From NCBI GenBank assembly GCA_900315885.1, contig ONAT01000004.1, positions 32,580 to 96,579 of the forward strand: a stretch of DNA of 64,000 nucleotides, given 5' to 3'. Shown piece by piece: positions 31,515-46,746 of the stretch; position 1 is the stretch's first letter; every line of letters begins with the position of its first letter. This DNA comes from an uncultured Erysipelotrichaceae bacterium. Its GTDB lineage: Bacteria; Bacillota_I; Bacilli_A; RFN20; CAG-826. The notes below the pieces were generated by a model, which was not told the origin of the DNA, did not search any database, and saw nothing but the letters and a program-made list of their open reading frames with translations. The translations under genes and the position numbers were made by a program.

Positions 31515-32741
31515 ATGAAAAAGACTAGATTAAAAAAATATGCAGAATTAATAGTTAAAATGGGCATTAATGTTCAAAAAGGACAAGATGTTATTATTAA
31601 CTGTGGTTTAGACCAACCAGAATTTGTAAAAATGGTCGTAGATTATTGCTATAAGTTTGGAGCAAGAAAAGTAACTGTTGATTGGTATTATCAACCACTT
31701 GATAAATTACACAACCGCTATTGCTCTATTAAGACTTTAGCTTCAGTAGAAAAATGGCAATTAGAAAAATGGCAACATCGTGTTGATACTTTGCCTGCTA
31801 TTCTTTTTATTGACAGTGATAATCCAGATGGTTTAAAGGGAATTAATGAAGAAAAATCTGCGAAAGCACGTATGAAGTCATATCCATTAATTAAACCATT
31901 CCGTGATGCAATGGAAAACAAATATCAATGGTGTATAGCAGCAGTTCCTGGCAAAGAATGGGCTAAAAAAATATTTCCGAATTTATCAACTGCTAAAGCA
32001 ATGGAAAAACTATGGGAAGCAATTTTATATACCGCTCGTGTAGATGAAGATCCAATTAAGGCTTGGGAATTACATAATAAGGATTTAGCGGATAGATGTG
32101 CTTATTTAAATAGTTTGCATTTAAAGAATTTATATTATAAATCCAATAATGGAACAAACTTTAGAGTAGGACTATTGCCTAATGCTCTATTTATGGGAGG
32201 AGAAGAAGTCACTCTTGACCGCAATATTCACTTCAACCCAAATATTCCATCAGAAGAATGTTTTACTTCTCCAAGAAAAGGTGATATTGAGGGTGTAGTT
32301 TATGCCTCAAAACCTCTTTCTTATAATGGACAATTAATTGAAAACTTCTGGTTCAAATTTGAAAATGGTAGAGTTACGGAAGTACATGCTGAAAAAGGTG
32401 AAGAAGTATTACGTCATATGGTGAAAATGGATGATGGTGCTTCAATGTTAGGAGAGGTTGCCTTAATCCCATATAAGTCACCAATTTCAGATTTAAATAT
32501 TTTATTTTACAATACATTATTTGATGAAAATGCTTCATGTCACTTAGCTTTAGGAACAGGCTTCACTAATGCGATTAAAGATTTTGAAAAATACACTAAT
32601 GAAGAATTACATGAAATGGGCATTAATGAATCAATGATTCACGTCGACTTTATGATTGGTAACAAAGATTTATCAATTGTCGGTGAGACAATGTCTGGCG
32701 AGAAAATACAAATCTTTAAAGATGGCAACTGGGCTTTCTAA
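31515..32741 (+). CDS. M29 family aminopeptidase (AmpS/PepS type)
   Basis: LKKYAELIVKMGINVQKGQDV N-terminus and C-terminal HLALG...IHVDFMIG metal-site region. Confidence 0.85.
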   Translation: MKKTRLKKYAELIVKMGINVQKGQDVIINCGLDQPEFVKMVVDYCYKFGARKVTVDWYYQPLDKLHNRYCSIKTLASVEKWQLEKWQHRVDTLPAILFIDSDNPDGLKGINEEKSAKARMKSYPLIKPFRDAMENKYQWCIAAVPGKEWAKKIFPNLSTAKAMEKLWEAILYTARVDEDPIKAWELHNKDLADRCAYLNSLHLKNLYYKSNNGTNFRVGLLPNALFMGGEEVTLDRNIHFNPNIPSEECFTSPRKGDIEGVVYASKPLSYNGQLIENFWFKFENGRVTEVHAEKGEEVLRHMVKMDDGASMLGEVALIPYKSPISDLNILFYNTLFDENASCHLALGTGFTNAIKDFEKYTNEELHEMGINESMIHVDFMIGNKDLSIVGETMSGEKIQIFKDGNWAF

Positions 32742-32752
32742 TATCAACAATT

Positions 32753-32779
32753 AAGCATCTCAATTGAGGTGCTTTTTTA
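32753..32779 (+). terminator. Rho-independent terminator ending the core block
   Basis: AGCATCTC / GAGGTGCT hairpin (one G-T pair) followed by TTTTTT. Confidence 0.65.
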
Positions 32780-32797
32780 TTGCTCCTTTTGAAAAAA

Positions 32798-32816
32798 TGT
32801 CTTTTCTTAAAAGACA
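32798..32816 (+). repeat. 19-bp palindrome copy 1: TGTCTTTT-CTT-AAAAGACA
   Basis: Perfect 8-3-8 inverted repeat. The right half overlaps a -35-like AAGACA. Confidence 0.9.
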
Positions 32817-32838
32817 AATAGGTTAAACCAGTTATAAT
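32811..32838 (+). promoter_or_regulatory. Candidate promoter AAGACA-16 nt-TATAAT for the HTH gene
   Basis: Perfect -10 TATAAT at 32833-32838. The -35-like hexamer is embedded in palindrome copy 1. Confidence 0.35.
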
Positions 32839-32877
32839 TTAATTACTTATATATGAGGGTAAAGTATTATAAGAAAG

Positions 32878-33135
32878 GTGCTTTTTATTTTAAAGGGACA
32901 ATATAAAGCCAAAATTGTATTGGGAAGTGAAGATGTGCTAGAAAGAGTTTACCAATATTACATAATGCACGATATTGATAAGAGTGATACAAAAGCAATC
33001 GTCTTTGAAAAAGTTTATCTTGTAAAAGAAAGATATTCTATGGACGAAATTGCTATTTTAGCAAACACTTCTGAAAGTACAATAAGGCGTACAATTAGGT
33101 CATTTAGTAGCCTAATAAAGAAGCTAATTAACTAA
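32878..33135 (+). CDS. Small sigma-70 region-4-like helix-turn-helix protein
   Basis: C-terminal ...VYLVKERYSMDEIAILANTSESTIRRTIRSFSSLIKKL fits the region 4.2 HTH pattern. The start is uncertain (GTG 32878 or GTG 32935). Confidence 0.55.
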   Translation: MLFILKGQYKAKIVLGSEDVLERVYQYYIMHDIDKSDTKAIVFEKVYLVKERYSMDEIAILANTSESTIRRTIRSFSSLIKKLIN

Positions 33136-33164
33136 AATGCTTACGCCCTTATATCATAAGTATT

Positions 33165-33198
33165 AAAGAGAGATTTTATCATGAATCTCTCTTTTTTT
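33165..33198 (+). terminator. Rho-independent terminator after the HTH gene
   Basis: AAAGAGAGATT / AATCTCTCTTT hairpin followed by a T-run. Confidence 0.7.
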
Positions 33199-33269
33199 AC
33201 CTAGCAAATGTTGCAAGGAACTTGTCAAAATATGTCGAATTATAATGAAAACAAAGGAGGGTGAAATAA

Positions 33270-33737
33270 GTGAATTTTGATAATTTAAAACCATATGAAT
33301 TCTTTTTTAGTGTTGGTTATGTAACTTTAATAGCGAGTGTATTGACACTTGTAATTACGCAGTTAATAAAAAAGATCTTAACTAAAAAAGGAATTCTATA
33401 TGAAGGTATGGAACAAAGCAAAAGAGATATGTTTTTGTCACGCATTGGACGCATTGTTGCATTATTAAGCTATGTTGCAATTTATCTAATTAACGCATTC
33501 TTAACTAAGCATACTTTGGTGTTAGACAAATCTCTTCTTGCAGGTTTACTGAGTGGAGCATCATTAACTCTTGTTATTGCAAAATCAATTTATACTTCGC
33601 TACATCAATATTTTAAAAAGAAAAATGTTTTTGAGCGACTTGAGTGTTTAGAAAAAGTAATTGATGTTTTAGAAAATGAAGTAAATCAAGATGAAAAAGA
33701 GAAAGTAAATAAATGGCTATTAACTAATAATAAATAG
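33270..33737 (+). CDS. Small 3-TM membrane protein with charged C-terminal tail (holin-like topology)
   Basis: AAGGAGG then GTG 33270. Three hydrophobic segments: FFFSVGYVTLIASVLTLVITQLI, IGRIVALLSYVAIYLINAFL, LLAGLLSGASLTLVIAKSIY. The tail is ...ENEVNQDEKEKVNKW. It ends 9 nt before the Rhs gene. Confidence 0.6.
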   Translation: MNFDNLKPYEFFFSVGYVTLIASVLTLVITQLIKKILTKKGILYEGMEQSKRDMFLSRIGRIVALLSYVAIYLINAFLTKHTLVLDKSLLAGLLSGASLTLVIAKSIYTSLHQYFKKKNVFERLECLEKVIDVLENEVNQDEKEKVNKWLLTNNK

Positions 33738-33746
33738 GAGGACAAC

Positions 33747-36700
33747 ATGAAAAAGATAATAGTAAAAGAAAGTACAAATGAAGTTATAGATTCTTCTATA
33801 AAAGAAGAAAACAAAATCAAAAAAGATGAAAAACAAAAATTTTTTGATATAAAATTTGAAAACAATTTAAAGAATAAAAAAGTTTTTAGTTTAACAAAGG
33901 ACAAACACCAAGTAGATTTATCATTTCTTGGTAGAAAAGGAAAAGAATTAAGTAATGCACAAGGTGTAGAAATTGGTAATCATGTAAAATACACAAATTT
34001 TGAAAAAGGGTTAGATTTATCGTATGACTATCAAGATAATCTTGTTAAGGAAAGTGTAATTATTAATGAAAGAAAAGATAATTATGATTTTAGTTTCTCT
34101 TTAAACATTGGAGAGTTAAAACCAATATATAATTCTGAAACAAGGACATTAGAATTAAAAAATAATGGTAACACAATTTATCGCATTCTTAGCCCATTTA
34201 TGGTCGATAAAAACAATGTAAGAAGTGATGATTGTTCTTATGAAATTGAACAACAAGATAGTAATTTGATGATTAATTTACATTGTGATTCCGATTGGAT
34301 TAATGATGAGAGTCGAGTGTTTCCAGTAGTGGTAGATCCTACAATTGAAGTTGTAGGAGATGTTATACATGTTAAACAATATGTTGATGATAGTATTGAA
34401 GAATCTAGAGGGCTTAAAATTGGGTTAGATAGGTATGGAGTTTATGATTTAGAATTTGTCGTTAACTGCAGTTTGCTTAAAAAGAATATAAATGACTTTA
34501 GTAGAGTTGTTATATCATTGCAGGTTATGTCACATTTAAATGACATGATGTCATCAAATCAAGAGTATCAACTAACTTTTGGTAATAACAAAATATATGC
34601 AATAAGGCATAGCGATATAAAAGATGTCGTTAGATTTGATATTACTGATTTGGTCCTTGAAACATCTACAAACCTTAACTTAAAATTCGGCCCTGTAACA
34701 AGAGATTCTACTATTCAAAAAATAAATGGTAAAGTAATTTATAGATCATTTAAAACCTACTTTTATCCTTTTAGTTATAGTAAAGATGAAAGTAAAAAAT
34801 CAGAACTCATTATTGAATATGATAAGAAAAAGTGTTTTAACAATATAAAAGATTATAATGTTGGTAAATTAAATAGTTTGCTAATCGATATAAGAAATGG
34901 TGATTATAAAATTATTAATGATTTAGACTTTAAGCTTAAGTCGAACACTATTGATTTCGATGTGAAAGCTGTTTATGACAATCAAAATTCAAATAATTAT
35001 TACATGAGTGACTATTGGAAAACCAATTTACATCAAATTTTAGAGAAACCATCTTCTTATCAAAGTGTTTTAGGCGCAACACGAATTACTTATGTTGATG
35101 GCCTAAACAAAAAACATATTCTTATGACAAAATGGTATTATGTAAAAAATAACCAAAAGAACTATGTTCAAAAAAAAGATATATATTTAGATAGCGATGG
35201 AAAGCTCAAATATAATAAAGATGGTCAAGTTTATGAAATTAAAAGCGAAACCACTAATGAAGAAGGTATTACATATGCATCAGGAAATGACATTTCTAAT
35301 TTCAATCAATTAAAGGATTCAACAAAATATCATTACGAGATTAAATGTGGAGTTGGGACAATAAGTGATATCCAAATAATTAATTATACTAGAATTAAAA
35401 TACCAAAATATGTGGAACAAATTGATAGCAATGGAACAGAAGAAGACATTAGATTTGAAAACATAGATATTATAAATGGAAAGTCATTAATTTCCGGAAA
35501 CAATGTCATATTAAAAGGAACACAAGAAGTTGCATTAAAAGCAGACGGAGATGGTCTCTACTTTAAATATCAAGTATATATTGATGATGAAGTTTGCATA
35601 GAAGAACAACGAGTGGATATTAAACCAGATTTAGATAATTATGACGCAAACGATGATATCTATTTAAATGAAGATATCTTAAATATTAATTCACAAATTA
35701 AAAGTATAGAGAACTCTAAAAGACAAGCATATCTATCACTAAATTCTGCGATTACATCAATTCGTAATTTAGATGAACAAATTACATATCAATGGCGACT
35801 TATTGCTAGAACTGGCACTAAAGAATATGATGCTGAATTTAAACGTTTATATGAAGATAATAGTATAGGAATGAAAACTTTAAAAAGTTTTATTACAAAA
35901 TGCAACGATAGTGAAGATTTAAATGGTGCATTTAAATTGGATAGTAATGGCAAATTACAAGTTGTATTAGCGGATAAGGTTAGTGAAACGAAAAATGCAG
36001 GAACTGTATTAAGTGTCATTTCAAATTATTTAACATTATTAGGTAACAAGATTACTTTGCTAAATAAAACTATTGAAAAAGATTACTCCGGTGACTATGA
36101 AAGTTTTCAATTAAAATTATTGAATCGTCAATATAACGATGCAAAAGAACAAATGGAATTAATGATAAATAGTTGCTTTGAATATGATAAACAACTAGAT
36201 TATTTAAAAGGGCAAAAGAATCAATTAGTAAATAGTCAAAAGAAAGAAATAAATGACTTTATTATTGATAAAGATGGCAACACTCTTGGATTTGATGGTT
36301 ACGGACATTTAATTCTTATTCAGGACAGATATGAAAATAAAATAAATATTGAATATGATTATGATGATATTGAGACGGGTAGATTAAGTAGAGTCATAAG
36401 TGATATGAATACTTTAGAATATCATTACAATAAAGTTACTAAATTGTTAGATTATATTGGCGATTCAAGAGGAGTAAATACTAAATTTGTATATATCGGT
36501 GATGAAGAATTGCAATTAAGTTCAATCGCTGGGGCAAAAGAAACCACTACATTTAGTTATGGTAATACTTTCATAATAAAAACGTTATTAAATAGTCTTA
36601 AGTTAATTCATAATGACGATGATACAGTTAGTGTTAAAGAGTATTATTTAAACACAAAAATTGGTGAGAATATAACTTTTGATAGTTCTGTAGACGAAAT

Positions 36701-39700
36701 TAATACAACTGATGATTTATATATTTTTGATACAACAAGTTATTTAAAAACAATTATTAGAGATAAGAAAACAAATAATAGTAATGATTTAAATGAAACG
36801 AAAGAAGATGAAGTATATTACTTTTCATCATCTGGAAAATGTGTTAAGAATGTAACTGATGAATTTGTAAACGTATCTTATTACAATCTTGACTTACTTA
36901 AACAAGAGGCAACTTATAGAAATAACGATGAAGTGATTATAAAGCCATTAACAATATATGGAGAAAGTCATGAATATAGTTTCGATTTGACTAGTAACAA
37001 TAATGAGTTATTAAACAAGATAAAGCAAGCAGACCTTATTGGACTTAAATTAGTTTTAAACACAGGAAATGTTGATAACATAGGTATTCTTGATTTGGCT
37101 TTAAGAGTTGATGTTACTACGAGCACTAATAAAGTTGAAACCTTCAGCGAGTCATTCCAAGAGCTTAAACTCCAAGAAGTTGTGTTACCTATTTTTGTTA
37201 ATACAAGTAATATCAAAAAGTTAGTCATAAATGTTACGAGTAAGTCTAGTGACTTCAATGATAGTTATATAGATGTTCTTGACCTTATTGCCTTAGAAAA
37301 TGGTGCCACTTATAAATACGATAATAAAGATAGGTTGATATATAAACAAGATAAAGAAGCAAAGATAACTTATAGCGATTTCGATGCTCATGACAACCCT
37401 TTACAATCAGTTAGTGTTGATAAGTATGACGCAACAGTGACTACTAAATATGCATACGATGTTGAAAATAGATTGACATACGTTGAAGATTCTTTAGGCA
37501 ATGTTAACGAATATTATTACGATGATAATGGACAATGCATTAAAAAGAGATCGTATAATAAAGAAGATGCTTCTTTAGTGCGTCAAGAAACATATGAATA
37601 TGATGATAAAGGACGTATTAAAGATAAAAAAGGACCAATTAAAAATAAAAATAAGGACTATCCTTTAGAACATATTGAATACTTACCTCATAGTGAAGTA
37701 ACCTCAAAGGTTATAGGATATAATAAACTAGCTACAAATTATACCTATGACTATTTAACTAATGACTTATTGTCAATAAGTGCAAGTGCAGATGGTATTA
37801 GTAATTCAAATTCATTTGGCTATACAAAGGGTTTCTTGACATCTGTTTCAAGTCGTGGAGTTAAGGTTAAGTATGTGTATGATGGAAGAGGCAGAATTGA
37901 GTCTATATATCTTAATGATGATAGTGAAGACAATATTGATGGTGATATTGAAGATGATAAAAAGGCTTTTATAAGTAATGCTTATGTCGACAATTATAAT
38001 AGTAATCCAAGTAGTCTAGAAAACGACTTAAATATTAAATATGGCACATATCAAAAATCCACATATAAAAATGGATTAGAGGAAGGCATCTTTACTAACT
38101 CAAAAGGCCAAGTTTTAAGAGTGGAAACTGAAGAAACGGATAGAACTATTAGAATTGATAATACATATGATTCAAATGGTAATATTACAAATACACAAAG
38201 CACAATAACTGAAGGCGATGTTGTAACAACAGAAGATGTTACTTACACATATGATAGTCATAAAAAATTAACTAAAATGGTTAAAAAGATTGATGATGAA
38301 AGTGTATATGAAATAGAGTATGAATATAACGATAGAGATTTAATGGATGGCGAAACTATAAAACTAGATGGTGAAGACATTGAGACTGGATATGATTATG
38401 ATTTAAAAAGAAGGATAACACATGCTCTTCAAGATAATTACAATTGTGATATTACATATGATGCCCTAGATCGTATTACTCATAAAGAAGTCGGAGAAGG
38501 TAACGTTACGATTTGTCATACGTACTCTTATCTTAAAGAAGAAGATAATAGTTTAGATTTAATCGCTAGTGATATCGTTAAAGTCAAAGTGGTAAATGGT
38601 GATAATACAACTTATCAAATTGAAACTAATAGATATAGTTACGACGAAATGGGAAATATCATAGAAATAGATTGTGATGAAAGTAAAACAAGATATAAAT
38701 ATGATGCCTTAAGTAGATTAGAAAGAGAAGATAATCCATCTTTAAATAAAACTATAGTTTATAAGTATGATGAAAAAGGAAATGTCATTTTGAAAAAGAC
38801 CTATTCATATACATTAGATGATAAACTAGAAGAAACTCCTGTCATAGATGAGTATGTGTATTCATGTTCTAATTGGGGAGATCAATTGATTGATTATAAT
38901 GGTAAAACCTTTAAATATGACAATATGGGAAGACCATTAGTGTATAAAGGCGATACATGTACATGGAGTCAACGAGGTGAATTAAAGAGTGTAAAGAAAG
39001 ACAATCAAGAAGCATTTAAATACTATTATGACGCGAATGGTATACGAAACAAGAAAATAGTGAATGGCGTAGAAACAAAATTCGTAGTAGTGGGAACAAA
39101 GATACTAAAAAGCATCATAAAGGTAGGAAATGAAGAAAGAACAATAAAATACAAATACGTTCTAGATAAATTAGAAGGATTTGTATATACTAAAGATGGA
39201 ATATCAAAAGAGTATAGATACGAACGAAATATATTTGGAGATATTACAAGGCTATATAATAGTGAGGGAAGCATAGAAGCAACATATGTATATGATGCAT
39301 ATGGAAGGGTAAAAGTAATAAACTCAATAGGCGAAGAAGACACTAATATAGAATTCATAGGTAATATAAATCCATTTAGATATCGTGGATATTATTTTGA
39401 TATTGAAACAGGATTGTATTACTTAAATAGTAGATATTATGATCCAGAGTTAGGAAGATTTATAAGTCCAGATACAATGGAATATTTAAGCCCTAACAAT
39501 ATTAATGGATTGAATTTATATTGCTATTGTAATAATAATCCGATTAATAAATACGACTCTACAGGACACTTTGGAATTTGGGCAATTATAGGAATTGTAT
39601 GGGCTGCGATTCTTTTAGGAGGAGGGGCTCAATTGGCATCCAATGCACTTGCTGGTGAAACAGGTAGTGATTTATGGCGAGGAGTTGCTGGTTCAGCATT

Positions 39701-40130
39701 GGGTTCTGGTGTAAATGCATTGGCATTAATTTTGGCTCCATTTACTGGGGGAGCCTCATTAGCATTTGCCGCTGGGTTAGGGGCTGTGGTTCAAACTGGC
39801 GTTGATACACTCGAAACAGTTATTAGAGGCGAAAATGTGAATGGTTTGCAAACAGTTGCTGACCTAGGTATTAATTTTGTTACTACATTTGCTGGTAACT
39901 GGTTGGGGGCAAAATTGGTTCCTACGAACAGTGGTTGGTTTCAAACGAAAAATTTCTTGAGTGTATTTATAAAACCTTATGGACAAAAAATTTTATTACA
40001 AACTGCAATTGGTGCTGGACTATCAGGAACTGTCAATTTTGCAAGAAAATTTGACTGGAGTAGTATTGATTGGAGAAAGTTTGTACCAGCAATACCTGTT
40101 CCAATGATTCCAATTTATCCGTATTTTTAG
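33747..40130 (+). CDS. RHS/YD-repeat polymorphic toxin, 2127 aa, no N-terminal signal peptide
   Basis: AGGAGG RBS. Many YD repeats from about residue 845 onward (YEYDDKGRIKDK, YTYDSHKKL, YKYDALSRLERED, YVYDAYGRV). RHS core end RYYDPELGRFISPD...NLYCYCNNNPINKYDSTGH. Confidence 0.95.
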   Translation: MKKIIVKESTNEVIDSSIKEENKIKKDEKQKFFDIKFENNLKNKKVFSLTKDKHQVDLSFLGRKGKELSNAQGVEIGNHVKYTNFEKGLDLSYDYQDNLVKESVIINERKDNYDFSFSLNIGELKPIYNSETRTLELKNNGNTIYRILSPFMVDKNNVRSDDCSYEIEQQDSNLMINLHCDSDWINDESRVFPVVVDPTIEVVGDVIHVKQYVDDSIEESRGLKIGLDRYGVYDLEFVVNCSLLKKNINDFSRVVISLQVMSHLNDMMSSNQEYQLTFGNNKIYAIRHSDIKDVVRFDITDLVLETSTNLNLKFGPVTRDSTIQKINGKVIYRSFKTYFYPFSYSKDESKKSELIIEYDKKKCFNNIKDYNVGKLNSLLIDIRNGDYKIINDLDFKLKSNTIDFDVKAVYDNQNSNNYYMSDYWKTNLHQILEKPSSYQSVLGATRITYVDGLNKKHILMTKWYYVKNNQKNYVQKKDIYLDSDGKLKYNKDGQVYEIKSETTNEEGITYASGNDISNFNQLKDSTKYHYEIKCGVGTISDIQIINYTRIKIPKYVEQIDSNGTEEDIRFENIDIINGKSLISGNNVILKGTQEVALKADGDGLYFKYQVYIDDEVCIEEQRVDIKPDLDNYDANDDIYLNEDILNINSQIKSIENSKRQAYLSLNSAITSIRNLDEQITYQWRLIARTGTKEYDAEFKRLYEDNSIGMKTLKSFITKCNDSEDLNGAFKLDSNGKLQVVLADKVSETKNAGTVLSVISNYLTLLGNKITLLNKTIEKDYSGDYESFQLKLLNRQYNDAKEQMELMINSCFEYDKQLDYLKGQKNQLVNSQKKEINDFIIDKDGNTLGFDGYGHLILIQDRYENKINIEYDYDDIETGRLSRVISDMNTLEYHYNKVTKLLDYIGDSRGVNTKFVYIGDEELQLSSIAGAKETTTFSYGNTFIIKTLLNSLKLIHNDDDTVSVKEYYLNTKIGENITFDSSVDEINTTDDLYIFDTTSYLKTIIRDKKTNNSNDLNETKEDEVYYFSSSGKCVKNVTDEFVNVSYYNLDLLKQEATYRNNDEVIIKPLTIYGESHEYSFDLTSNNNELLNKIKQADLIGLKLVLNTGNVDNIGILDLALRVDVTTSTNKVETFSESFQELKLQEVVLPIFVNTSNIKKLVINVTSKSSDFNDSYIDVLDLIALENGATYKYDNKDRLIYKQDKEAKITYSDFDAHDNPLQSVSVDKYDATVTTKYAYDVENRLTYVEDSLGNVNEYYYDDNGQCIKKRSYNKEDASLVRQETYEYDDKGRIKDKKGPIKNKNKDYPLEHIEYLPHSEVTSKVIGYNKLATNYTYDYLTNDLLSISASADGISNSNSFGYTKGFLTSVSSRGVKVKYVYDGRGRIESIYLNDDSEDNIDGDIEDDKKAFISNAYVDNYNSNPSSLENDLNIKYGTYQKSTYKNGLEEGIFTNSKGQVLRVETEETDRTIRIDNTYDSNGNITNTQSTITEGDVVTTEDVTYTYDSHKKLTKMVKKIDDESVYEIEYEYNDRDLMDGETIKLDGEDIETGYDYDLKRRITHALQDNYNCDITYDALDRITHKEVGEGNVTICHTYSYLKEEDNSLDLIASDIVKVKVVNGDNTTYQIETNRYSYDEMGNIIEIDCDESKTRYKYDALSRLEREDNPSLNKTIVYKYDEKGNVILKKTYSYTLDDKLEETPVIDEYVYSCSNWGDQLIDYNGKTFKYDNMGRPLVYKGDTCTWSQRGELKSVKKDNQEAFKYYYDANGIRNKKIVNGVETKFVVVGTKILKSIIKVGNEERTIKYKYVLDKLEGFVYTKDGISKEYRYERNIFGDITRLYNSEGSIEATYVYDAYGRVKVINSIGEEDTNIEFIGNINPFRYRGYYFDIETGLYYLNSRYYDPELGRFISPDTMEYLSPNNINGLNLYCYCNNNPINKYDSTGHFGIWAIIGIVWAAILLGGGAQLASNALAGETGSDLWRGVAGSALGSGVNALALILAPFTGGASLAFAAGLGAVVQTGVDTLETVIRGENVNGLQTVADLGINFVTTFAGNWLGAKLVPTNSGWFQTKNFLSVFIKPYGQKILLQTAIGAGLSGTVNFARKFDWSSIDWRKFVPAIPVPMIPIYPYF
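39570..40127 (+). other. Rhs C-terminal toxin domain (186 aa, glycine/alanine-rich, hydrophobic)
   Basis: Starts right after the core-terminating NNPINKYDSTGH motif. Small-xxx-small glycine-zipper-like runs: LLGGGAQLASNALAG, GVAGSALGSGVNALALILAPFTGGASLAFAAGLGAVV, AIGAGLSG. Confidence 0.7.
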
Positions 40131-40140
40131 AGGTGAAAAT

Positions 40141-40528
40141 TATGATTATTAAAGATAAATTAATAAAAGAGTATCCGCTAACTAAAAAAATAGATTGTTC
40201 TTTTGAATGCTTTGAAGTTATGAAAAGAAGGTATGTTATTTTTTATGATGAAAAAATCAATAAAGAAAATATGGAATCTTTATTGGATGTATTTAATGAT
40301 AATTCGAAAAATAGCTTTACAGAAAAAAGAACATTAATTATAGTTGGGCATACGGATGAAAAGTTTAATAAAAAAGATTTATTGTTTTTTAACGGAGTTG
40401 ATACATTTGTTGTTTATTATTTAATAAATGATAACAACAAAGAAATTTACTTTAATGATCAAAGAGTGTTCTGGTTCAGTGTTGATTGGAAAAAAATAAT
40501 TAAAAAATTTAATGAAATATTAAAATAA
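40141..40528 (+). CDS. Candidate cognate immunity protein (129 aa, soluble)
   Basis: GAGGTGA RBS overlaps the Rhs stop, and the ATG is 10 nt after it. This is the canonical immunity position. No family recognised. Confidence 0.6.
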
Positions 40529-40555
40529 ATAGTGAATTTCTTTCACAAGCAAAAC

Positions 40556-40598
40556 TAGGTAAGTTTACTCAATGGGTAAGCTTACCTTTATTTTTTAT
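40556..40598 (+). terminator. Rho-independent terminator after the toxin-immunity pair
   Basis: AGGTAAGTTTAC / GTAAGCTTACCT hairpin followed by TTATTTTTT. Confidence 0.65.
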
Positions 40599-40620
40599 GG
40601 TATGGATTCAAAAATAGTCA

Positions 40621-40818
40621 AATTCACGATTTCTATTTACAAAAATCTTTTAAATATTTCATCTGAATGTTAAAATTAAAATAAAGATAGGGGTGAAATA
40701 ATACACGGGTTAATAATGTAATAACAATATAATGTAAAAAAATTAAAAAAATTCATATAATTATTTTCAAAATATTTATATACAATATTTTAGAAAATAT
40801 ATTAGTTAGCTAATTAGA
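40621..40818 (+). repeat. Direct repeat copy 1 (198 nt), upstream region of the 40844 cassette
   Basis: Aligns with 43444..43631. I count 4 substitutions, one 9-nt tandem duplication (AAAAAAATT) and a 1-nt indel. Confidence 0.9.
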
Positions 40819-40843
40819 CACATCAAAGGTTGGAAATTTAAGA

Positions 40844-41053
40844 ATGAAAAAAAAGACGTTTTATCAAACTAATATTTTTTGGCAGTTATTTTGTTTTGTG
40901 TTTCTTGCAATTTTTATATTGATTTTTATAGTCACTGTGCAATGTATTATTGCAATTATAAAAAATGGATTTGGTAAAACAATTTCCGATATAATGGCCT
41001 CTGTGTTTATATTAGCAGTACTTGTTATTGGTTGTTCATTGGCGTTAATCTAA
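40844..41053 (+). CDS. 2-TM N-terminal half of an interrupted 2TM+PH-like gene
   Basis: 69 aa with two hydrophobic helices. Its TAA at 41051 is in frame with ORF 41105..41449, and no other stop lies between them. Confidence 0.5.
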   Translation: MKKKTFYQTNIFWQLFCFVFLAIFILIFIVTVQCIIAIIKNGFGKTISDIMASVFILAVLVIGCSLALI

Positions 41054-41104
41054 TTCATTATTTTAGAACACAACAATGTTCATTTAACAAAAGACAAAAT
41101 ATAT

Positions 41105-41449
41105 ATGAACAATGATTGGAATCCAAAGAAAGATAAAATACAATATTATACTGAAGCATATTTTGCTGATATTGAATCTATTGATATTATTTGGACAAAA
41201 ATGGATTCTAGAGGTAAATTGATTAGACCTAAGCTTATCTCTGCTTCAGTAGAAAAGCCATATTTATCTATAAAAACTAAAGATGGTAAAATATCTAATT
41301 TCTTTGTCATGTATATTCCGAAGAAAAATGTAATAAAAATAATAAATGAAATTAGTTATCGAATGAAAAGTGTAGGGAACAATATTAAGATTATTAATTC
41401 CGATGAAGCATATTTAAAAATTAAGAAAAAAATTTATATCGATATCTAG
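41105..41449 (+). CDS. Soluble C-terminal half of the interrupted 2TM+PH-like gene
   Basis: Same frame as 40844..41053. No SD precedes ATG 41105. The layout matches the soluble halves of 44667..45080 and 45979..46467. Confidence 0.45.
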   Translation: MNNDWNPKKDKIQYYTEAYFADIESIDIIWTKMDSRGKLIRPKLISASVEKPYLSIKTKDGKISNFFVMYIPKKNVIKIINEISYRMKSVGNNIKIINSDEAYLKIKKKIYIDI

Positions 41450-41503
41450 ATATTAAATTATTAAATAGTCACATGAACTAGCAAGAGTATAACTGTTTCA
41501 AGA

Positions 41504-41522
41504 TGTCTTTTTTTAAAAGACA
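41504..41522 (+). repeat. 19-bp palindrome copy 2: TGTCTTTT-TTT-AAAAGACA
   Basis: Perfect 8-3-8 inverted repeat. Confidence 0.9.
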
Positions 41523-41577
41523 AATTTTTCTAAAATTAAAATAGTAAATTGCGATAACACAATTTATCAATTGAATA

Positions 41578-41862
41578 TTGCTAGATTCAATCAAACAATT
41601 AATCAATTGGCATGGCGGAATTGCCTTACTGATTGCTTTCGGAATAAGTACTGTTTTAGGTGGTGTATATGGAAGCGTATCAGTTGCTGAAAGTATACTT
41701 TATGATATTAATAATCCTTATGGGTTTAGAGACTGTGATTGGGGAGAATTTAAACTACATCCAGATCTAGACTTAGAAGAAAAAATTAATCAATTTGAAA
41801 TATTAGGAGATTATAAAGAAGACTTAAGAAAAAGAAGAGAAAAATGGTATAAAGAAGTATGA
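41578..41862 (+). CDS. Small single-TM protein (94 aa) coupled to the cyclase gene
   Basis: TTG start with no obvious SD. Glycine-rich TM GGIALLIAFGISTVLGGVYGSV. The stop TGA overlaps the GAGGTG RBS of the cyclase, whose ATG is 8 nt downstream. Confidence 0.35.
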   Translation: MLDSIKQLINWHGGIALLIAFGISTVLGGVYGSVSVAESILYDINNPYGFRDCDWGEFKLHPDLDLEEKINQFEILGDYKEDLRKRREKWYKEV

Positions 41863-41870
41863 GGTGATAA

Positions 41871-42620
41871 ATGATGTATGAATATGATTATATAAACGGA
41901 AAAAGAAGAGTAAACGAGATACTAAATGATTCCAATGAAATTGAGGCAAAAGAGAAAGTACCAAAAGAAAATGATTTTACTTTTCATAATGGTTATTTTG
42001 CTTGGGTTACTGCTGTATTTGTTGACATAAGGGATTCAACATCAATTTTCACAGAAAATAAGAAGACTTCAACTTCAAAAATTATAAGAGCATTTACTTC
42101 CGAAGTAATTGGAATTTTAAAGGACGACGATAATTTGCGCGAAATTGGTATTAGAGGAGATTGTGTATATGCTATCTATACTACATCCCAAAAATACGAA
42201 GATTATGAAATTGCGAATAAAGTGTTTTATGTAAATACTTTTATGAAAATGTTAAATAAATTATTGCAAAACAAAAACATGAAAACTATTAAAGTTGGGA
42301 TTGGCGTTTCTACAGCACAAGAACTAGTTGTTAAAGCCGGAAGAGAAAAAACTGGCATTAATAACTTAGTATGGATTGGAAAAGCGGTAACTTATGCTTC
42401 TAAATTTTCTTCTTTAGCAAATTCTAATGATTATAATAACATTATTTTTTCCGACAACTTTTATAATAGTTTTATTGGGGATTTAAAAAATAACAATAAA
42501 AATAAAAATGTTGAATCTTGGTTTAAGCAACATAGAGATAGCAAATTGGGTTATTTTTACGACTGTGACATAATCAAATCAGAATTCAATGATTGGATTG
42601 AAAATGGTATGAAAGGATAA
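41871..42620 (+). CDS. Stand-alone class III nucleotidyl cyclase (Pycsar PycC-like)
   Basis: Cyclase homology-domain motifs in order: AVFVDIRDSTSIF (metal Asp 1), IRGDCVYAIY (metal Asp 2), IKVGIGVSTAQELVVKAG, VWIGKAVTYASKFSSLA. 249 aa with no other domain. Confidence 0.7.
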   Translation: MMYEYDYINGKRRVNEILNDSNEIEAKEKVPKENDFTFHNGYFAWVTAVFVDIRDSTSIFTENKKTSTSKIIRAFTSEVIGILKDDDNLREIGIRGDCVYAIYTTSQKYEDYEIANKVFYVNTFMKMLNKLLQNKNMKTIKVGIGVSTAQELVVKAGREKTGINNLVWIGKAVTYASKFSSLANSNDYNNIIFSDNFYNSFIGDLKNNNKNKNVESWFKQHRDSKLGYFYDCDIIKSEFNDWIENGMKG

Positions 42621-42635
42621 CAAAGGAGAGTTTAG

Positions 42636-43142
42636 ATGAACAAAAATGAAGAAAAATATGAAATTTTATCTGGGATAAGTAATCAAATATCATCTTTTGA
42701 TAATAAAGCGAGCATTTTAATTTCAGCTATAGGAATTGTTTTCGCATTATCTTTATCTTTCTTAGATGTGTTTTGTGAAGATGATTTTTTATCAAAATGT
42801 CAAATTTTTAAAATAATTTACTATGCATTATTTATATTATTTATTATCAATACAATTGTTGTAATAGGTTCATATATATTAGTTATTATTCCTAGGAAGA
42901 AAATTGGAAATAATAAATATGCAAATTATTATAACGACATTGCTGATTTAGATATTTATGGTCATAAGGAATATGATGATTTGTTAGAAGATTATACAAA
43001 AAACGATAATTTACTTACAGAACAAATTATTATTAATTCAAAGATATGTAAAACCAAACATTTATTTTTGAAAGTTGGTATAATATCATTAATACCATTT
43101 TCAATATTGTTATTGGTTCTTATTGTACTGACAATAATTTAA
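42636..43142 (+). CDS. Multi-TM effector (Pycsar PycTM-like)
   Basis: AAGGAG RBS 15 nt after the cyclase stop. N-terminal helix with the SFDNKASILISAIGIV motif as I recall it for Pycsar effector domains. 3-4 hydrophobic segments, 168 aa. Confidence 0.65.
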   Translation: MNKNEEKYEILSGISNQISSFDNKASILISAIGIVFALSLSFLDVFCEDDFLSKCQIFKIIYYALFILFIINTIVVIGSYILVIIPRKKIGNNKYANYYNDIADLDIYGHKEYDDLLEDYTKNDNLLTEQIIINSKICKTKHLFLKVGIISLIPFSILLLVLIVLTII

Positions 43143-43351
43143 TTAACAAATATTAAATACGAGATTCCTGCTTTTTTAATATGTAAACTATGTTTTCTGG
43201 TTTCATCAAGGTGTGATGGCACAAGATGCTGTGGCAGATTGTAATCAGTCTTATCTACTTTACGAAACATGATTGATTTTATAGAAAAAGTTTTAAAAAC
43301 TGAGTTTTTAATACCTTCTTTAGCCTATTAGGTGTAAGGAGGTATTTTTAT

Positions 43352-43465
43352 ATGATGCAAATTGTTTTAAATAAGAATACATATTTTATTAACGAATCAT
43401 TTAATGGGGCAACAAGAACATTAATCAATATTCTTAAGAATAGAATTCACTATTTCTATTTATAA
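43352..43465 (+). CDS. Small ORF (37 aa), possibly a truncated gene remnant
   Basis: Strong AAGGAGG RBS. Its 3' end (KNRIHYFYL*) lies inside direct repeat copy 2. Copy 1 has CAA where this copy has the TAA stop. Confidence 0.3.
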   Translation: MMQIVLNKNTYFINESFNGATRTLINILKNRIHYFYL

Positions 43466-43631
43466 AAATCTTTTAAATATTTCATCTGAATGTTAAAATT
43501 AAAATAAAGATAGGGGTGAAATAATATACGGGTTAATAACGTAATAACAATATAATGTAAAAAAATTCATATAATTATTTTCAAAATATTTATATACAAT
43601 ATTTTAGAAAATATATTAGTTAGTAATTAGA
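43444..43631 (+). repeat. Direct repeat copy 2 (188 nt), upstream region of the 43644 cassette
   Basis: See copy 1. The similarity ends just before the RBS of the downstream gene in both copies. Confidence 0.9.
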
Positions 43632-43643
43632 GGGAGACTATCT

Positions 43644-44246
43644 GTGATTATATTTAAAAGAGAAAAAAATGCATTGTTGAAATTTAAGCAATATATAGAA
43701 GGGGAAATGGATTTTGATACTTTCTGGCAAGAATATATTGCTTGTGGCGATTTAATGAAATATTTATGCAAGTTTGATCAAAGAAGGCGTGAAGAATTTT
43801 TGATTAATAATGATTTCATAAATTATTTTTATAACGGAAAACCTGCTTTTCAGTTAAAAGTTGGCTTACAGGCATCAATAATGGCATATTTGAAGAAAAG
43901 AAAAATTAAATTTGAAAACAAAACAAAAGAATATGTTCTATGGGAAAAATGGAATAGTTATATACCAGATTTTGTTCCTTGTAATGAATCAATGTATTAT
44001 TTTATGGAAAACTTAGACAATGGCGTTAGACACTCAAAAAAATATTATCGTGACTATTTTTCAAAGATTTATCAATACGTAAAATATTATCCGCGATGGT
44101 TGCAAATGTGCGAATGGCCTATGGATGATGATGGAACCCCAACTAAATTCTTGTATCAAACTGGTTTTCCTAATAAACATGATTTTATTGAGTATTGGTT
44201 TCTAAAAAAAGATGGTACAAAAATTAAAATAGAACAATACGATTAA
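43644..44246 (+). CDS. Hypothetical soluble protein (200 aa), immunity-protein-like
   Basis: AGGGAG then GTG 43644. Trp/Tyr-rich. No catalytic motif recognised. Confidence 0.55.
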   Translation: MIIFKREKNALLKFKQYIEGEMDFDTFWQEYIACGDLMKYLCKFDQRRREEFLINNDFINYFYNGKPAFQLKVGLQASIMAYLKKRKIKFENKTKEYVLWEKWNSYIPDFVPCNESMYYFMENLDNGVRHSKKYYRDYFSKIYQYVKYYPRWLQMCEWPMDDDGTPTKFLYQTGFPNKHDFIEYWFLKKDGTKIKIEQYD

Positions 44247-44313
44247 TGAGTGCTCAATGTCGGGGACTACAATTAGTGACTTGGTTTTTTTGAAAATTAA
44301 ATGGCTATTAGTA

Positions 44314-44486
44314 GTGTTTAGATGTGTTACTAAAAACGGATTAAAGGTTGCTGAAGTTGTCAGTAAAGACCAGACTTATGTTAGTCAAGTTGCTAAAGTT
44401 GAAGAATGATTGGACAATATTCTCATATATCTAATGGACTAACTCTAGATGCTTTACTATTTATTACAAAATGGTTTGTATTCTAA
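44314..44486 (+). pseudogene. Decayed XRE-type HTH gene remnant (two frames)
   Basis: 44314..44409 reads ...GLKVAEVVSKDQTYVSQVAKVEE*. Shifted frame 44412..44486 reads GQYSHISNGLTLDALLFITKWFVF*. Together they resemble an HTH_3 fold broken by a frameshift. Confidence 0.3.
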
Positions 44487-44534
44487 AAATATCTATTTTT
44501 TTGATTAATGATTAATTGTTTGGAGGTGCATTAT

Positions 44535-44645
44535 GTGAATTCTAAATTTACTTTAAGATTCTTGGCAGCACTAATTGCTGGTGGAACAGAAACTGCCTAT
44601 GATTTAACATCATATTTAATTGGGAAATTAATTTCAGCTTTTTAG
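44535..44645 (+). CDS. Small ORF (36 aa, VNSKFTLRFLAALIAGGTETAYDLTSYLIGKLISAF)
   Basis: GGAGGTG precedes GTG 44535. It ends 12 nt before the RBS of the next gene. It may be a peptide or an orphan toxin-tail fragment. Confidence 0.25.
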   Translation: MNSKFTLRFLAALIAGGTETAYDLTSYLIGKLISAF

Positions 44646-44666
44646 TCATTAGGAGGATTGATTATT

Positions 44667-45080
44667 TTGAAACAAAAATTTTATAAAAATTTATTTCAAA
44701 CGATGTCATATTTTGCTGTAATAATAATTTTCGAGGTGTTTTTACTTATTGGTTTTTTTGCTAGTTTAAGTTATGGTCAAAATTTTGGTTGGATACTATT
44801 GATAATATCTTTATCTTTAATTGCATTATTCTATCTAATAGGGTTTTATTGGATTTTCCAAATAGTATCTATTGATGAACATGGAATTAAAATATTATTC
44901 AAAAGTAAAATTGTTAAGCAACTTAAATGGGAAGAAATAGATACAATAGAAGAAGCAAATATAATGAGAAATCCAGCACTAAGAATTAAAGCATTTGATG
45001 GAAGTGAAATTCATTTAGATAAAAGAAAACAAATTGTTAAAGCGATAGAAATATATTCGCAAAATAAAATAATAAAATAA
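44667..45080 (+). CDS. 2-TM + PH-like small membrane protein (paralog B)
   Basis: AGGAGG at 44651-44656. TTG 44667 has better spacing than TTG 44658. Two TM helices, then a soluble IVSIDEHGIKILFKSKIVKQLKWEEIDTIE... domain. Confidence 0.6.
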   Translation: MKQKFYKNLFQTMSYFAVIIIFEVFLLIGFFASLSYGQNFGWILLIISLSLIALFYLIGFYWIFQIVSIDEHGIKILFKSKIVKQLKWEEIDTIEEANIMRNPALRIKAFDGSEIHLDKRKQIVKAIEIYSQNKIIK

Positions 45081-45172
45081 TTTTATTTAACGCACTGTAA
45101 AAACAGATATTATTAGATTAGTAGGAGACATTGCAAGTTCAATATTCAATAATTTTTAGGAGGACATAAACT

Positions 45173-45358
45173 ATGTGGGAATTTATTAAATATTGTCTAT
45201 ATTGTTTATTAATGTCAATCTCTGCTGCTTTTGGAAACAATCCTGAGGGAATGACATTCAAACACGCAATAGTTGGAAGTATTACAATGTTTGTATTATT
45301 AGGATTAGCTTTGGGCATTCTTTGGTTAATTGCAAGGGTTGTTAATAAATCTAGATAA
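45173..45358 (+). CDS. Small 2-TM membrane protein (61 aa)
   Basis: TAGGAGGA RBS 7 nt upstream. Two hydrophobic segments. Confidence 0.5.
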   Translation: MWEFIKYCLYCLLMSISAAFGNNPEGMTFKHAIVGSITMFVLLGLALGILWLIARVVNKSR

Positions 45359-45396
45359 AATGTAACTTACAAGGTTTATATAGGAGATTAGTTTTA

Positions 45397-45702
45397 ATGG
45401 AAAAACAAAAAAAGAAAAAAACATTAAAATATACAAAATGTTTTAAAGTATATGAAAAAGAATTAACATGGGATTTATTTATTAAATATTTAAATGATAA
45501 TATGGAATTTTGCTTTTATTTGAATGATATAACAATTGATATTGCTTTTCATTATAAGGACAAAATAAAAGTATATGAATTAAATATTTCTTCAGGTGAA
45601 AATAGAACTAATTTAAATTTTAATTCAATAGATGAACTTATTTCTTTTAAAGCTTTTAACAATAAATCACTTTATGATATTTGGGACGAATTAGAGAATT
45701 AA
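45397..45702 (+). CDS. Hypothetical small soluble protein (101 aa)
   Basis: TAGGAGA RBS. Followed by a terminator. No family recognised. Confidence 0.5.
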   Translation: MEKQKKKKTLKYTKCFKVYEKELTWDLFIKYLNDNMEFCFYLNDITIDIAFHYKDKIKVYELNISSGENRTNLNFNSIDELISFKAFNNKSLYDIWDELEN

Positions 45703-45727
45703 TTAATAAATTAACATCTCATTAGTT

Positions 45728-45769
45728 AGATGCATTTGCTACATTAAAGTAGTAGATGCATCTTTTTTT
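45728..45769 (+). terminator. Rho-independent terminator
   Basis: AGATGCAT...ATGCATCT outer stem plus CTAC/GTAG inner stem, followed by TTTTTTT. Confidence 0.6.
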
Positions 45770-45865
45770 GTGTGTAAAGAAATTTTAATAATATTTTTAA
45801 AATTGACCCTCACATTTGTTATTTTAAATGCCCAGTACTATTGAAGGGGGACTCAATTGTTTAAA

Positions 45866-45884
45866 TGTCTTTTCAGAAAAGACA
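45866..45884 (+). repeat. 19-bp palindrome copy 3: TGTCTTTT-CAG-AAAAGACA
   Basis: Perfect 8-3-8 inverted repeat. Confidence 0.9.
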
Positions 45885-45978
45885 AATTAAATCTGTTTTT
45901 TTGATAGATTTCAAATGTTGATTAGCAAAAAATAAAAGCAACTTTTTATAATTGTGATATGATTAAGAAAAAGGAGCT

Positions 45979-46467
45979 ATGGTTTTTGTGAAAAAGATTT
46001 ATTCAAATAAGTCCGTTATTTACTTTTCAATCTTTGGGATTGTTTTTATATCAATAATAATGATTTTGAGTATTATTTCCTTAATGTCTAATGTGGAAGA
46101 AACTACAAATAATATTCTTATGATTATTGTGTTGATATTAATATATTTATTCTTTTTAGTGTTGTTTGTTTTTTCGTTAAATAAATTTGGATATAAAGTA
46201 ATATATGATAGTAATAAAAAAGTTATTTCTAAAAAAGGATTTATCTTTGGACACGAATACCAAATAAAGCTAGAAGATATAAAAGAAGTGGCGGTGTTAT
46301 CACTACCAAAAGAAACAGCTTATTATGTTTTAACTGATTCAAAAGATGATAAACAAGAATCATTTATTAAAATTAAGAAAACAAAAAAGAATGAGGCTTT
46401 TGTAAAACAATTTTGGGATAAAGCAATTAAGGAATACGAAGATTACGAAGAATTGTTTAATAAATAA
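45979..46467 (+). CDS. 2-TM + PH-like small membrane protein (paralog C)
   Basis: AAGGAG RBS. Two TM helices, then YKVIYDSNKKVISKKGFIFGHEYQIKLEDIKEVAV... and a C-terminal helix. Confidence 0.6.
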   Translation: MVFVKKIYSNKSVIYFSIFGIVFISIIMILSIISLMSNVEETTNNILMIIVLILIYLFFLVLFVFSLNKFGYKVIYDSNKKVISKKGFIFGHEYQIKLEDIKEVAVLSLPKETAYYVLTDSKDDKQESFIKIKKTKKNEAFVKQFWDKAIKEYEDYEELFNK

Positions 46468-46509
46468 TTTTAGATATAGTTTTAAATATTGGAAGATTAT
46501 TTATGTTTT

Positions 46510-46537
46510 TTAAGTATATTTAATACTCTGTTATAAT
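46510..46537 (+). promoter_or_regulatory. Candidate promoter TTAAGT-16 nt-TGTTATAAT (extended -10)
   Basis: TGnTATAAT at 46529-46537. Palindrome copy 4 starts 8 nt downstream, so it would cover the transcription start. Confidence 0.4.
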
Positions 46538-46544
46538 CACTAAT

Positions 46545-46563
46545 TGTCATTTTAGAAAAGACA
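46545..46563 (+). repeat. 19-bp palindrome copy 4: TGTCATTT-TAG-AAAAGACA (one mismatch)
   Basis: 8-3-8 inverted repeat with one mismatch. Confidence 0.85.
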
Positions 46564-46589
46564 AAACTAGTTTGCTTTAGAGTGCAAAA

Positions 46590-46608
46590 TGTCTTTTTGG
46601 AAAAGACA
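46590..46608 (+). repeat. 19-bp palindrome copy 5: TGTCTTTT-TGG-AAAAGACA, extendable to 12-3-12 and followed by a T-run
   Basis: AAAATGTCTTTT-TGG-AAAAGACATTTT then TTTGTTTTT. It has intrinsic-terminator geometry. Confidence 0.9.
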
Positions 46609-46643
46609 TTTTTTTGTTTTTGACATGTGTGCAAGTTGAGAAT

Positions 46644-46662
46644 TGTCTTTTGATAAAAGACA
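46644..46662 (+). repeat. 19-bp palindrome copy 6: TGTCTTTT-GAT-AAAAGACA
   Basis: Perfect 8-3-8 inverted repeat. Confidence 0.9.
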
Positions 46663-46746
46663 AAAGTAAATAGTCTGTAGCCATTACTTCATAATTAATC
46701 GTATAAATAGTATGCATATTACGTATAAATTATTAGAGGAACGAGT

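Follow-up and report, generated by a model that had tools for sequence, protein, structure and literature searches.

The stretch of DNA analysed here, referred to throughout as the window, is 64 kb long and comes from an uncultured human-gut Erysipelotrichaceae. It carries a 14-kb toxin and anti-phage island, variable among strains, that lies between pepS (31515-32741), encoding an aminopeptidase, and the gene of a P-type cation ATPase (46747-49314). The island contains, in order, a small helix-turn-helix (HTH) open reading frame (ORF), the gene of a 155-aa membrane protein, that of a 2127-aa Rhs/YD-shell toxin, small ORFs, the genes of a Pycsar cyclase and its PycTM partner, further small ORFs and the gene of a 162-aa membrane protein; some of the small ORFs that follow the Rhs gene may be immunity genes. 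The subject of this report is a 19-base palindrome, TGTCTTTT-N3-AAAAGACA, which is found in exact form (TGTCTTTTNNNAAAAGACA) at 32798, 41504, 45866, 46590 and 46644, and in a sixth copy with a single mismatch (TGTCATTT...) at 46545. Copy 1 heads the HTH ORF, copy 2 the 94-aa/Pycsar unit, copy 3 the 162-aa gene, and copies 4-6 head the ATPase. The features of the locus are as follows.

32753..32774, + strand: intrinsic-terminator-like hairpin that ends the pepS unit, at the left island edge
32798..32816, no strand: copy 1, TGTCTTTTCTTAAAAGACA, exact, 24 nt past the pepS terminator
32811..32838, + strand: promoter-like AAGACA-16-TATAAT, 10/12 matches
32878..33135, + strand: small HTH ORF, 85 aa from GTG or 66 aa from ATG 32935, with its own terminator at 33165-33194
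33270..40130, + strand: genes of the 155-aa membrane protein and the 2127-aa Rhs/YD-shell toxin, the main toxin unit
38783..38801, no strand: match with two mismatches within the Rhs ORF, retained by all strains as coding sequence
41078..41096, no strand: degenerate site with the right arm alone intact and 3 mismatches to the strict consensus, 9 nt upstream of a 114-aa ORF
41491..41580, + strand: leader module of 90 bp, conserved among strains and containing copy 2
41504..41522, no strand: copy 2, TGTCTTTTTTTAAAAGACA, exact, overlapped by the -35/-10-like pair TTAAAA-18-TAAAAT
41578..43142, + strand: downstream of copy 2, a 94-aa ORF with the genes of a Pycsar-type cyclase (41871-42620) and a PycTM effector (42636-43142)
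45866..45884, no strand: copy 3, TGTCTTTTCAGAAAAGACA, exact, ~100 nt past a terminator (45728-45763) and 95 nt before the 162-aa gene
45979..46467, + strand: gene of the 162-aa protein, with two predicted transmembrane segments, present in every strain examined (159 or 162 aa)
46545..46563, no strand: copy 4, TGTCATTTTAGAAAAGACA, one arm mismatch, beginning 7 nt past a TATAAT
46590..46608, no strand: copy 5, TGTCTTTTTGGAAAAGACA, flanked by AAAA and a T7 run
46644..46662, no strand: copy 6, TGTCTTTTGATAAAAGACA, 84 nt 5' of the ATPase start codon
46747..49314, + strand: core gene of a P-type cation ATPase (domains Cation_ATPase_N and Cation_ATPase_C)

When the window was searched for TGTCTTTTNNNAAAAGACA with up to two mismatches, 7 matches were found against a mean of 0.15 expected from 100 dinucleotide-preserving shuffles, none of which ever reached 7. 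A blind search of the window for recurrent perfect palindromes with 7-nt arms returned this family alone. The motif search bears out the original prediction in its count of six copies, their 8-3-8 geometry and their loops (CTT, TTT, CAG, TAG, TGG and GAT). The seventh match, at 38783, is probably due to chance and outside the set, and the degenerate site at 41078-41096 may be a decayed copy: a degenerate copy had been placed near 41077-41096, which holds good for the right arm but leaves three mismatches overall. The accompanying claim that no further copy exists elsewhere in the window stands for the palindrome but not for the half-site AAAAGACA, which has six more occurrences (2089, 2368, 16573, 21207, 35718 and 41089). 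All six copies are intergenic and 5' of a unit, two of them coming after a terminator, and all are held by the non-coding share of the island, 2,102 of 14,005 bases (15%), a placement with p ~5e-4 when the sites are taken as four independent loci. The motif departs strongly from chance and is island-specific.

The centres of the two arms lie 11 bp apart, i.e. one helical turn. The arm sequence is common to all copies, and the 3-nt centre differs; that the arms share a sequence, and not merely the ability to pair, indicates sequence-specific recognition. Two other regularities noted at the outset survive in reduced form. The flanks are indeed unconserved between copies, except that copies 2 and 3 have a short matching stretch immediately on their 5' side, and the common orientation of the copies means little for a perfect palindrome, leaving as a weak signal the AA that trails five of the six (p ~0.013, given that AA follows AGACA elsewhere in the window in ~31% of cases).

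The right arm of copy 1 is itself the -35-like hexamer of the promoter-like site before the HTH ORF, and this site, AAGACA-16-TATAAT, is the first-listed of 108 promoter-like matches in 32000-47500 and shares the joint top score of 10/12. The promoter and terminator scan thus agrees with the prediction that copy 1 directly follows the core terminator and overlaps a -35-like hexamer for the HTH gene. Since copy 1 lies upstream of its promoter-like site it is unlikely to be transcribed, which favours action on DNA. The predicted position of copy 2 before the small-ORF/Pycsar operon is confirmed by the ORF map, as is that of copies 4-6 in the leader of the P-type ATPase. Copy 3 likewise lies before the gene that had been called 'paralog C', but the paralogy itself fell away, as the 140-aa and 162-aa proteins align with a BLASTP E value of 1.6. 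Directly before the ATPase start we also noted CGTATAAATTATTAGAGGA (46719-46746), which is conserved in L253 and L254 (just upstream of position 10001 in each) despite an ATPase only 67-71% identical, and which may be the actual -10 region and ribosome-binding site of a very short ATPase leader.

The window was compared with nineteen loci of the same species that come from other samples, and every copy is in place wherever the region is covered. Copy 1 is identical, loop included, in the nine loci that cover it (9/9), and copy 6 is invariant in five of five haplotypes. The remaining copies have variants: copy 2 has the loop CTT in other strains and a left arm CGTC in L250; the loop of copy 3 is CAT in other strains; that of copy 4 is, depending on the strain, TAG, CAA, AAA or CAAA, with the 4-nt form of one strain arising from an extra A in an A-run and the arm mismatch (A) fixed in all haplotypes; and copy 5 has the loop ACT in some strains and a right arm GATA in L267 and L271. 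Counted as variable alignment columns among five ATPase-leader haplotypes, variation amounts to 1/48 in the palindrome arms, 6/10 in the loops, 13/246 in the rest of the leader and 43/855 at the third codon positions of the ATPase. Arms and loops differ with p = 3e-5, the loops are more variable than all other classes (p ~1e-5), and the arms are also more conserved than the non-arm columns within the site cluster (12/71, p = 0.014). Arms that are kept across strains while the loops change fit an operator whose spacer is not touched by the protein. Template-switch inversion was considered as the cause of the loop changes and rejected, the variant loops not being mutual reverse complements.

A polymorphism hotspot spans 46552-46640, from copy 4 to copy 6, where L250, L266, L267 and L271 present three allelic forms (gagtgcaaaa/TGG/gacatgtg; gagcgtaaaa/ACT/gactcgtg; gagtgcgaaa/ACT+GATA/gacatatg). 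These alleles do not track the phylogeny of the adjacent ATPase gene, and the haplotypes h2 and h4 have 9/304 differences in the leader, in the segment of copies 4 and 5, against 1/2568 in the gene. This pattern suggests that the segment has undergone recombination or is under diversifying selection.

To place the palindrome beyond the island, we turned to related genomes and to public collections. Orthologues of the ATPase, 65-71% identical, were located in three related Erysipelotrichales species, in which the gene order is rnr-pepS-(1-3 small genes)-ATPase-MatE with no Rhs island. The palindrome was not found in these three species at up to three mismatches in ~22 kb each, so that the search for island enrichment in related genomes, which had been put forward as a check, supports island specificity. 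Upstream of the ATPase, only the last ~30 bases before the start codon are common to the window and the related species; it follows from this limited similarity that copies 4-6 came with the island, and among the species compared they occur in the ATPase leader of this species only. Within the species, no copy was found at up to two mismatches in the non-island part of the window (~50 kb) or in ~9.6 kb past the right end of the window. By a Poisson estimate this excludes a density of at least one per 13 kb (p < 0.01) and is still compatible with a few dozen copies genome-wide.

Searches of public genome and viral contigs with the bare motif, and of metagenome contigs with the extended motif, gave among the matches listed single chance-like ones in unrelated organisms, and these are uninformative on this species. 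The tandem-site pattern was not found in the metagenome contig collection, though the JGI contig L251 carries it, so the species is seemingly absent from that collection. Three multi-site loci from environmental metagenome contigs (L276, L312 and L334) were rejected as an unrelated tandem repeat of higher G+C; their repeat units carry TGTCTTTTG(T/A)CAAAAGACA and near-copies, a likeness that we take as chance. The covariance models of Rfam 15 gave no match at gathering score in the window, where a tRNA scan was also empty, and a literature search with the two half-site strings gave no operator paper among those listed.

The HTH ORF is the sole candidate for a DNA-binding protein encoded in the island, and it adjoins a site in all strains. 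Its family has matches to HTH_23 and Sigma70_r4 of Pfam that lie below the curated cut-offs and recur in 5-6 of 7 members, and the family profile matches a TrpR-like chain in the PDB (E = 5e-4). An AlphaFold model of the protein has four helices (predicted local distance difference test score, pLDDT, of 72), for which Foldseek returned sigma-H region 4, UPF0122 and SigA region 4 as best matches, at non-significant E values of 0.3 or worse. From these family and fold resemblances it is plausible that the island HTH protein binds DNA. As to its start, the GTG at 32878 has a purine-rich AGAAAGG running into it and the homologues align to the longer N-terminus; NCBI annotates the 66-aa form (ATG 32935).

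A word-based homologue search with the HTH protein returned its own cluster only, and an exhaustive search of 1.8 billion representative proteins four remote homologues. Two of the three on contigs long enough adjoin Rhs/YD-shell genes, so that the family stands beside Rhs in three contexts (the window, L260/L261 and L265), and around the homologue P0186 (locus L260) the order is the same, namely HTH, small membrane protein, Rhs. The HTH family is linked to Rhs loci. In distant AT-rich lineages, small HTH homologues recur beside Rhs genes, the features concerned being L260 9389-9850 and 10001-10249 and L265 1380-2032; the latter locus has two HTH paralogues in tandem. Just upstream of the HTH gene in L260 is a gene for a sigma factor of extracytoplasmic function (ECF) type, seen as a 78-aa Sigma70_r2 ORF that is followed, past an A-run and in a different frame, by a region-4-like continuation; we considered a two-piece sigma factor here and rejected it in favour of one frameshifted ECF-type sigma gene, which the DNA reading makes more likely. 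A 580-bp metagenome contig, L264, which starts at the base right after copy 1, carries a divergent allele of the HTH ORF with 67% identity over residues 1-60 and possibly a frameshift; the palindrome seems to break assemblies.

Taken together, these observations lead us to propose, with a probability of roughly 0.5, that the palindromes serve as operators on the DNA, bound by a single protein that is sequence-specific and probably dimeric. The suggestion of an island-specific regulon operator is thus supported in part, by confinement to the island and to the ATPase leader that it created, the 5' position of the sites, the promoter overlap at copy 1 and the conservation of the arms, whereas the arguments drawn from cassettes and from orientation proved weak. 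Within this proposal the island HTH protein has about even odds of being the binder, a weak assignment, and a factor from another part of the genome is just as possible. Either protein would co-ordinate transcription of several units of the Rhs-toxin/Pycsar island and of the P-type ATPase, and would probably contact both 8-bp arms and ignore the centre. At copies 1-3, where we infer that the site lies over the -35 region with -10-like hexamers 14-20 nt beyond the palindrome, binding would result in repression or in replacement of -35 recognition. The three sites of the ATPase leader, spaced 45 and 54 bp in an upstream region that the island replaced on this reading, would serve either as a roadblock or as an array that activates from upstream. 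If the HTH protein is the binder, its own gene would be regulated via copy 1.

Several observations weigh against this proposal. The promoter region of the main Rhs operon (33195-33270) is without a palindrome, a promoter scan found no sigma-70-like promoter in the copy-3 region or in the ATPase leader, and the distance from the palindrome to -10-like elements varies. Conservation of the arms is not significant when set against the whole leader (p = 0.48) or the third codon positions (p = 0.72), because the strains differ by just 0.04-1.7%. Variation of the loops exceeds what is expected for an unconstrained spacer, for which a simple operator model gives no explanation. Finally, the recognition helix of P0186 is almost identical to that of the window protein (SESTIRRHIREF against SESTIRRTIRSF), and yet L260-L262 around P0186 have neither a TGTC-N9-13-GACA palindrome nor any recurrent palindrome, which weakens the assignment of the HTH protein as reader of the palindrome; the palindrome itself, or any recurrent one, was likewise sought at the loci of the HTH homologues and not found.

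The surroundings of copy 2 bear on what else the element might be. The 90-bp module that contains it heads the Pycsar unit in the window, and orphan Rhs-core fragments that carry other toxin domains follow it in L001, L003 and L250; the module is 93% identical before Pycsar or two different orphan Rhs toxins, and homology around copy 2 breaks 13 bp to the left (L001) and 58 bp to the right. In these three loci the module is followed by the Rhs core's 3' end, as a copy of 390-460 bp fused to differing toxin domains; such units are classical orphan cassettes. They lie at L001 19617-20009 and at L250 6166-6626 and 7666-7807, with their Rhs-core counterpart at window 39154-39611 (93-98% identical); one has a weak TNT match, and none has an obvious start codon or ribosome-binding site. 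In some strains such cassettes take the place of Pycsar, an anti-phage pair (41871-43142) that sits here inside a polymorphic-toxin locus and whose cyclase is a Guanylate_cyc match, with PycTM barely at the Pfam cut-off. A second type of shared leader, free of the palindrome, is a direct repeat of ~190 bp (40621-40818 and 43444-43631, 95-100% identical) that heads a 69-aa ORF (40844) and a 200-aa ORF (43644) and is found in other strains too. A natural deletion is seen in L266 (GCA_022777715.1), where at 3691-3701 window 33416 is joined to 40427 with ~10 bp of junction overlap; most of the 155-aa gene, the entire Rhs gene and part of a probable immunity gene are lost. Despite the loss of Rhs, L266 retains the HTH gene, Pycsar and all palindromes.

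A shared leader before variable toxins is predicted by a common promoter and also by a recombination junction, and the second of these would make the palindromes cassette-junction elements, at which toxin, immunity and defence cassettes are exchanged via a recombinase acting in trans or by recombination promoted by homology or hairpins. The constancy of the copy-2 module with homology ending nearby, the marking of both island ends (the left one by copy 1, the right one by copies 4-6) and the shuffling of copy 4-5 leader alleles relative to the ATPase gene speak in its favour. We nevertheless give this idea little weight, as Pfam finds no integrase, transposase or HUH/Y1 enzyme among the island ORFs, the Rhs deletion of L266 has its ends inside genes far from the palindromes, the conserved block at copy 3 begins ~95 bp upstream, at the terminator and not at the site, the palindrome-free repeated leader heads other units, and the conserved leader before orphan toxins is expected from a shared promoter as well. 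Breakpoints thus fall at palindromes at the copy-2 module only, those of the L266 deletion and the copy-3 block lying elsewhere, and the cassette-boundary element that had been offered as an alternative to the operator holds for copy 2, before different cassettes, but not for the L266 breakpoints.

It is unlikely, though somewhat less so, that the copies are transcribed hairpins acting on RNA or single-stranded DNA, which would check read-through from one module to the next by attenuation or termination, or would serve to stabilise transcripts or to process them; on this view copy 5 would be a weak intrinsic terminator that shields the ATPase from island transcription. All copies fold as predicted (-5.9 to -8.9 kcal/mol, z-scores -2.1 to -4.6), and copy 5, at -8.9 kcal/mol, extends to a 12-bp stem followed by T7GT5 and resembles a weak terminator; where its arm reads GATA in place of GACA, a G-U pair remains on the + strand. 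Copies 4-6, being downstream of a TATAAT, could lie in a 5' untranslated region, the hypervariable loops fit a loop exposed as single-stranded DNA, and the trailing AA is a weak strand bias. However, the stems are AU-rich and weak, with 2 G-C pairs and -2.8 to -6.8 kcal/mol each, copy 5 apart, and a terminator scan calls none of the six (0/6). Copy 1, placed after a strong terminator and upstream of the best promoter, is probably untranscribed. Selection for structure alone would give differing stems with compensating changes, where we see one sequence in all; copy 4 has its A-A mismatch in every strain, the CGTC of L250 breaks a pair, and no Rfam family matches. Improbable, too, is a generic dispersed short repeat, similar to repetitive extragenic palindromic (REP) elements or miniature inverted-repeat transposable elements (MITE), that is dense here by chance and has no role in the island. 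Short palindromes of such a size are typical for REP-type elements, and the L264 assembly breaks exactly at copy 1, as assemblies do at repeats. Such a repeat sits poorly with the ~60 kb of same-species non-island DNA that has no copy and excludes the density given above, with the related species, whose ~120 kb of syntenic DNA is likewise empty, with positions 5' of genes rather than 3' or in convergent intergenic regions, and with flanks that differ between copies save for the short stretch 5' of copies 2 and 3. Because the loops vary at 6/10 columns against 5% of third positions, and the h2 and h4 leaders differ far beyond the adjoining gene, we also considered hairpin-forming cis elements with loops and inter-site leader that are actively diversified or exchanged between strains, to which we attach a low probability. 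The same low standing goes to their possible role as portable expression modules for cassette swapping and for takeover of a neighbouring housekeeping gene, which would amount to a cassette system with no recognisable recombinase in a gut bacterium of Gram-positive type.

Returning to the proposed operators, their nearest likenesses are to the OR1-OR3 sites of phages 434 and lambda and to SOS boxes: a perfect or near-perfect inverted repeat with half-sites about one turn apart and an unconserved centre, a small regulon, a cluster of three sites, and a small HTH gene with a site over its promoter, suggestive of autoregulation. Unlike the phage operators, the clustered sites lie 45 and 54 bp apart from centre to centre, not ~23 bp, with no fixed distance to -10 elements, and the regulator is putative. 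The CodY box of low-GC Firmicutes is AATTTTCWGAAAATT, in which the central CWG is conserved. It shares with our palindrome a T4-N3-A4 palindromic core, and by eye copy 3 (TCTTTTCAGAAAAGA) matches 11/15 positions and the other copies fewer; we rejected it, the outer TGTC/GACA being foreign to CodY and its conserved CWG centre corresponding to the most variable part here. The consensus sequences of TnrA/GlnR, Fur-type regulators and SinR were likewise rejected, on spacing or on conserved positions. The statement that the palindrome matches no known operator consensus thus remains in place, since none of those considered or found fits.

Other systems resemble the locus in part. With REP elements and bacterial interspersed mosaic elements (BIME), and with the subterminal hairpins of IS200/IS605, the copies have in common that they are short intergenic hairpin palindromes on one strand and at both ends of a segment; they differ in that no Y1/HUH transposase or REP-associated tyrosine transposase (RAYT) is found by Pfam in the island ORFs, in being confined to 14 kb at 5' and not 3' positions, and in their arms, perfect 8-bp repeats without the defining bulges or guide tetranucleotides. 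BrxR/CapW-type WYL regulators of defence islands offer a palindrome before an anti-phage operon (here Pycsar) and a small regulator gene in the island, whereas the 85-aa HTH candidate has no WYL or other sensor domain and the site also heads toxin cassettes and a housekeeping ATPase. In Salmonella, main and orphan Rhs toxin/immunity modules have conserved dedicated promoters, which lie inside the rhs ORF and are described as being expressed in every condition that was tested (Starsta et al. 2020, PMC7043789). Common to those promoters and the 90-bp copy-2 module is a short conserved leader before differing toxin cassettes; the element described here differs in being intergenic and palindromic, in also preceding HTH, membrane-protein and ATPase genes, and in belonging to a Gram-positive-type Erysipelotrichaceae and not to an enterobacterium. 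The operator-like motif, a well-supported cis element, would be new in that no described operator or RNA family was matched, and a palindromic operator of a small regulon would be of a familiar kind.

To our knowledge, the regulation of Rhs/polymorphic-toxin and Pycsar loci in Gram-positive-type gut bacteria or Firmicutes is almost uncharacterised. If the palindromes are operators, one motif would join an Rhs toxin locus, orphan cassettes, Pycsar and a core cation pump, and the gain would be a useful new regulon rather than a new type of mechanism. It appears that the island has captured the control region of the housekeeping ATPase beside it, and the polymorphism of the loops and of the leader between the sites adds interest to the motif. 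The motif also gives a handle on a candidate family of regulators, the small sigma-region-4-like HTH proteins that recur beside Rhs genes.

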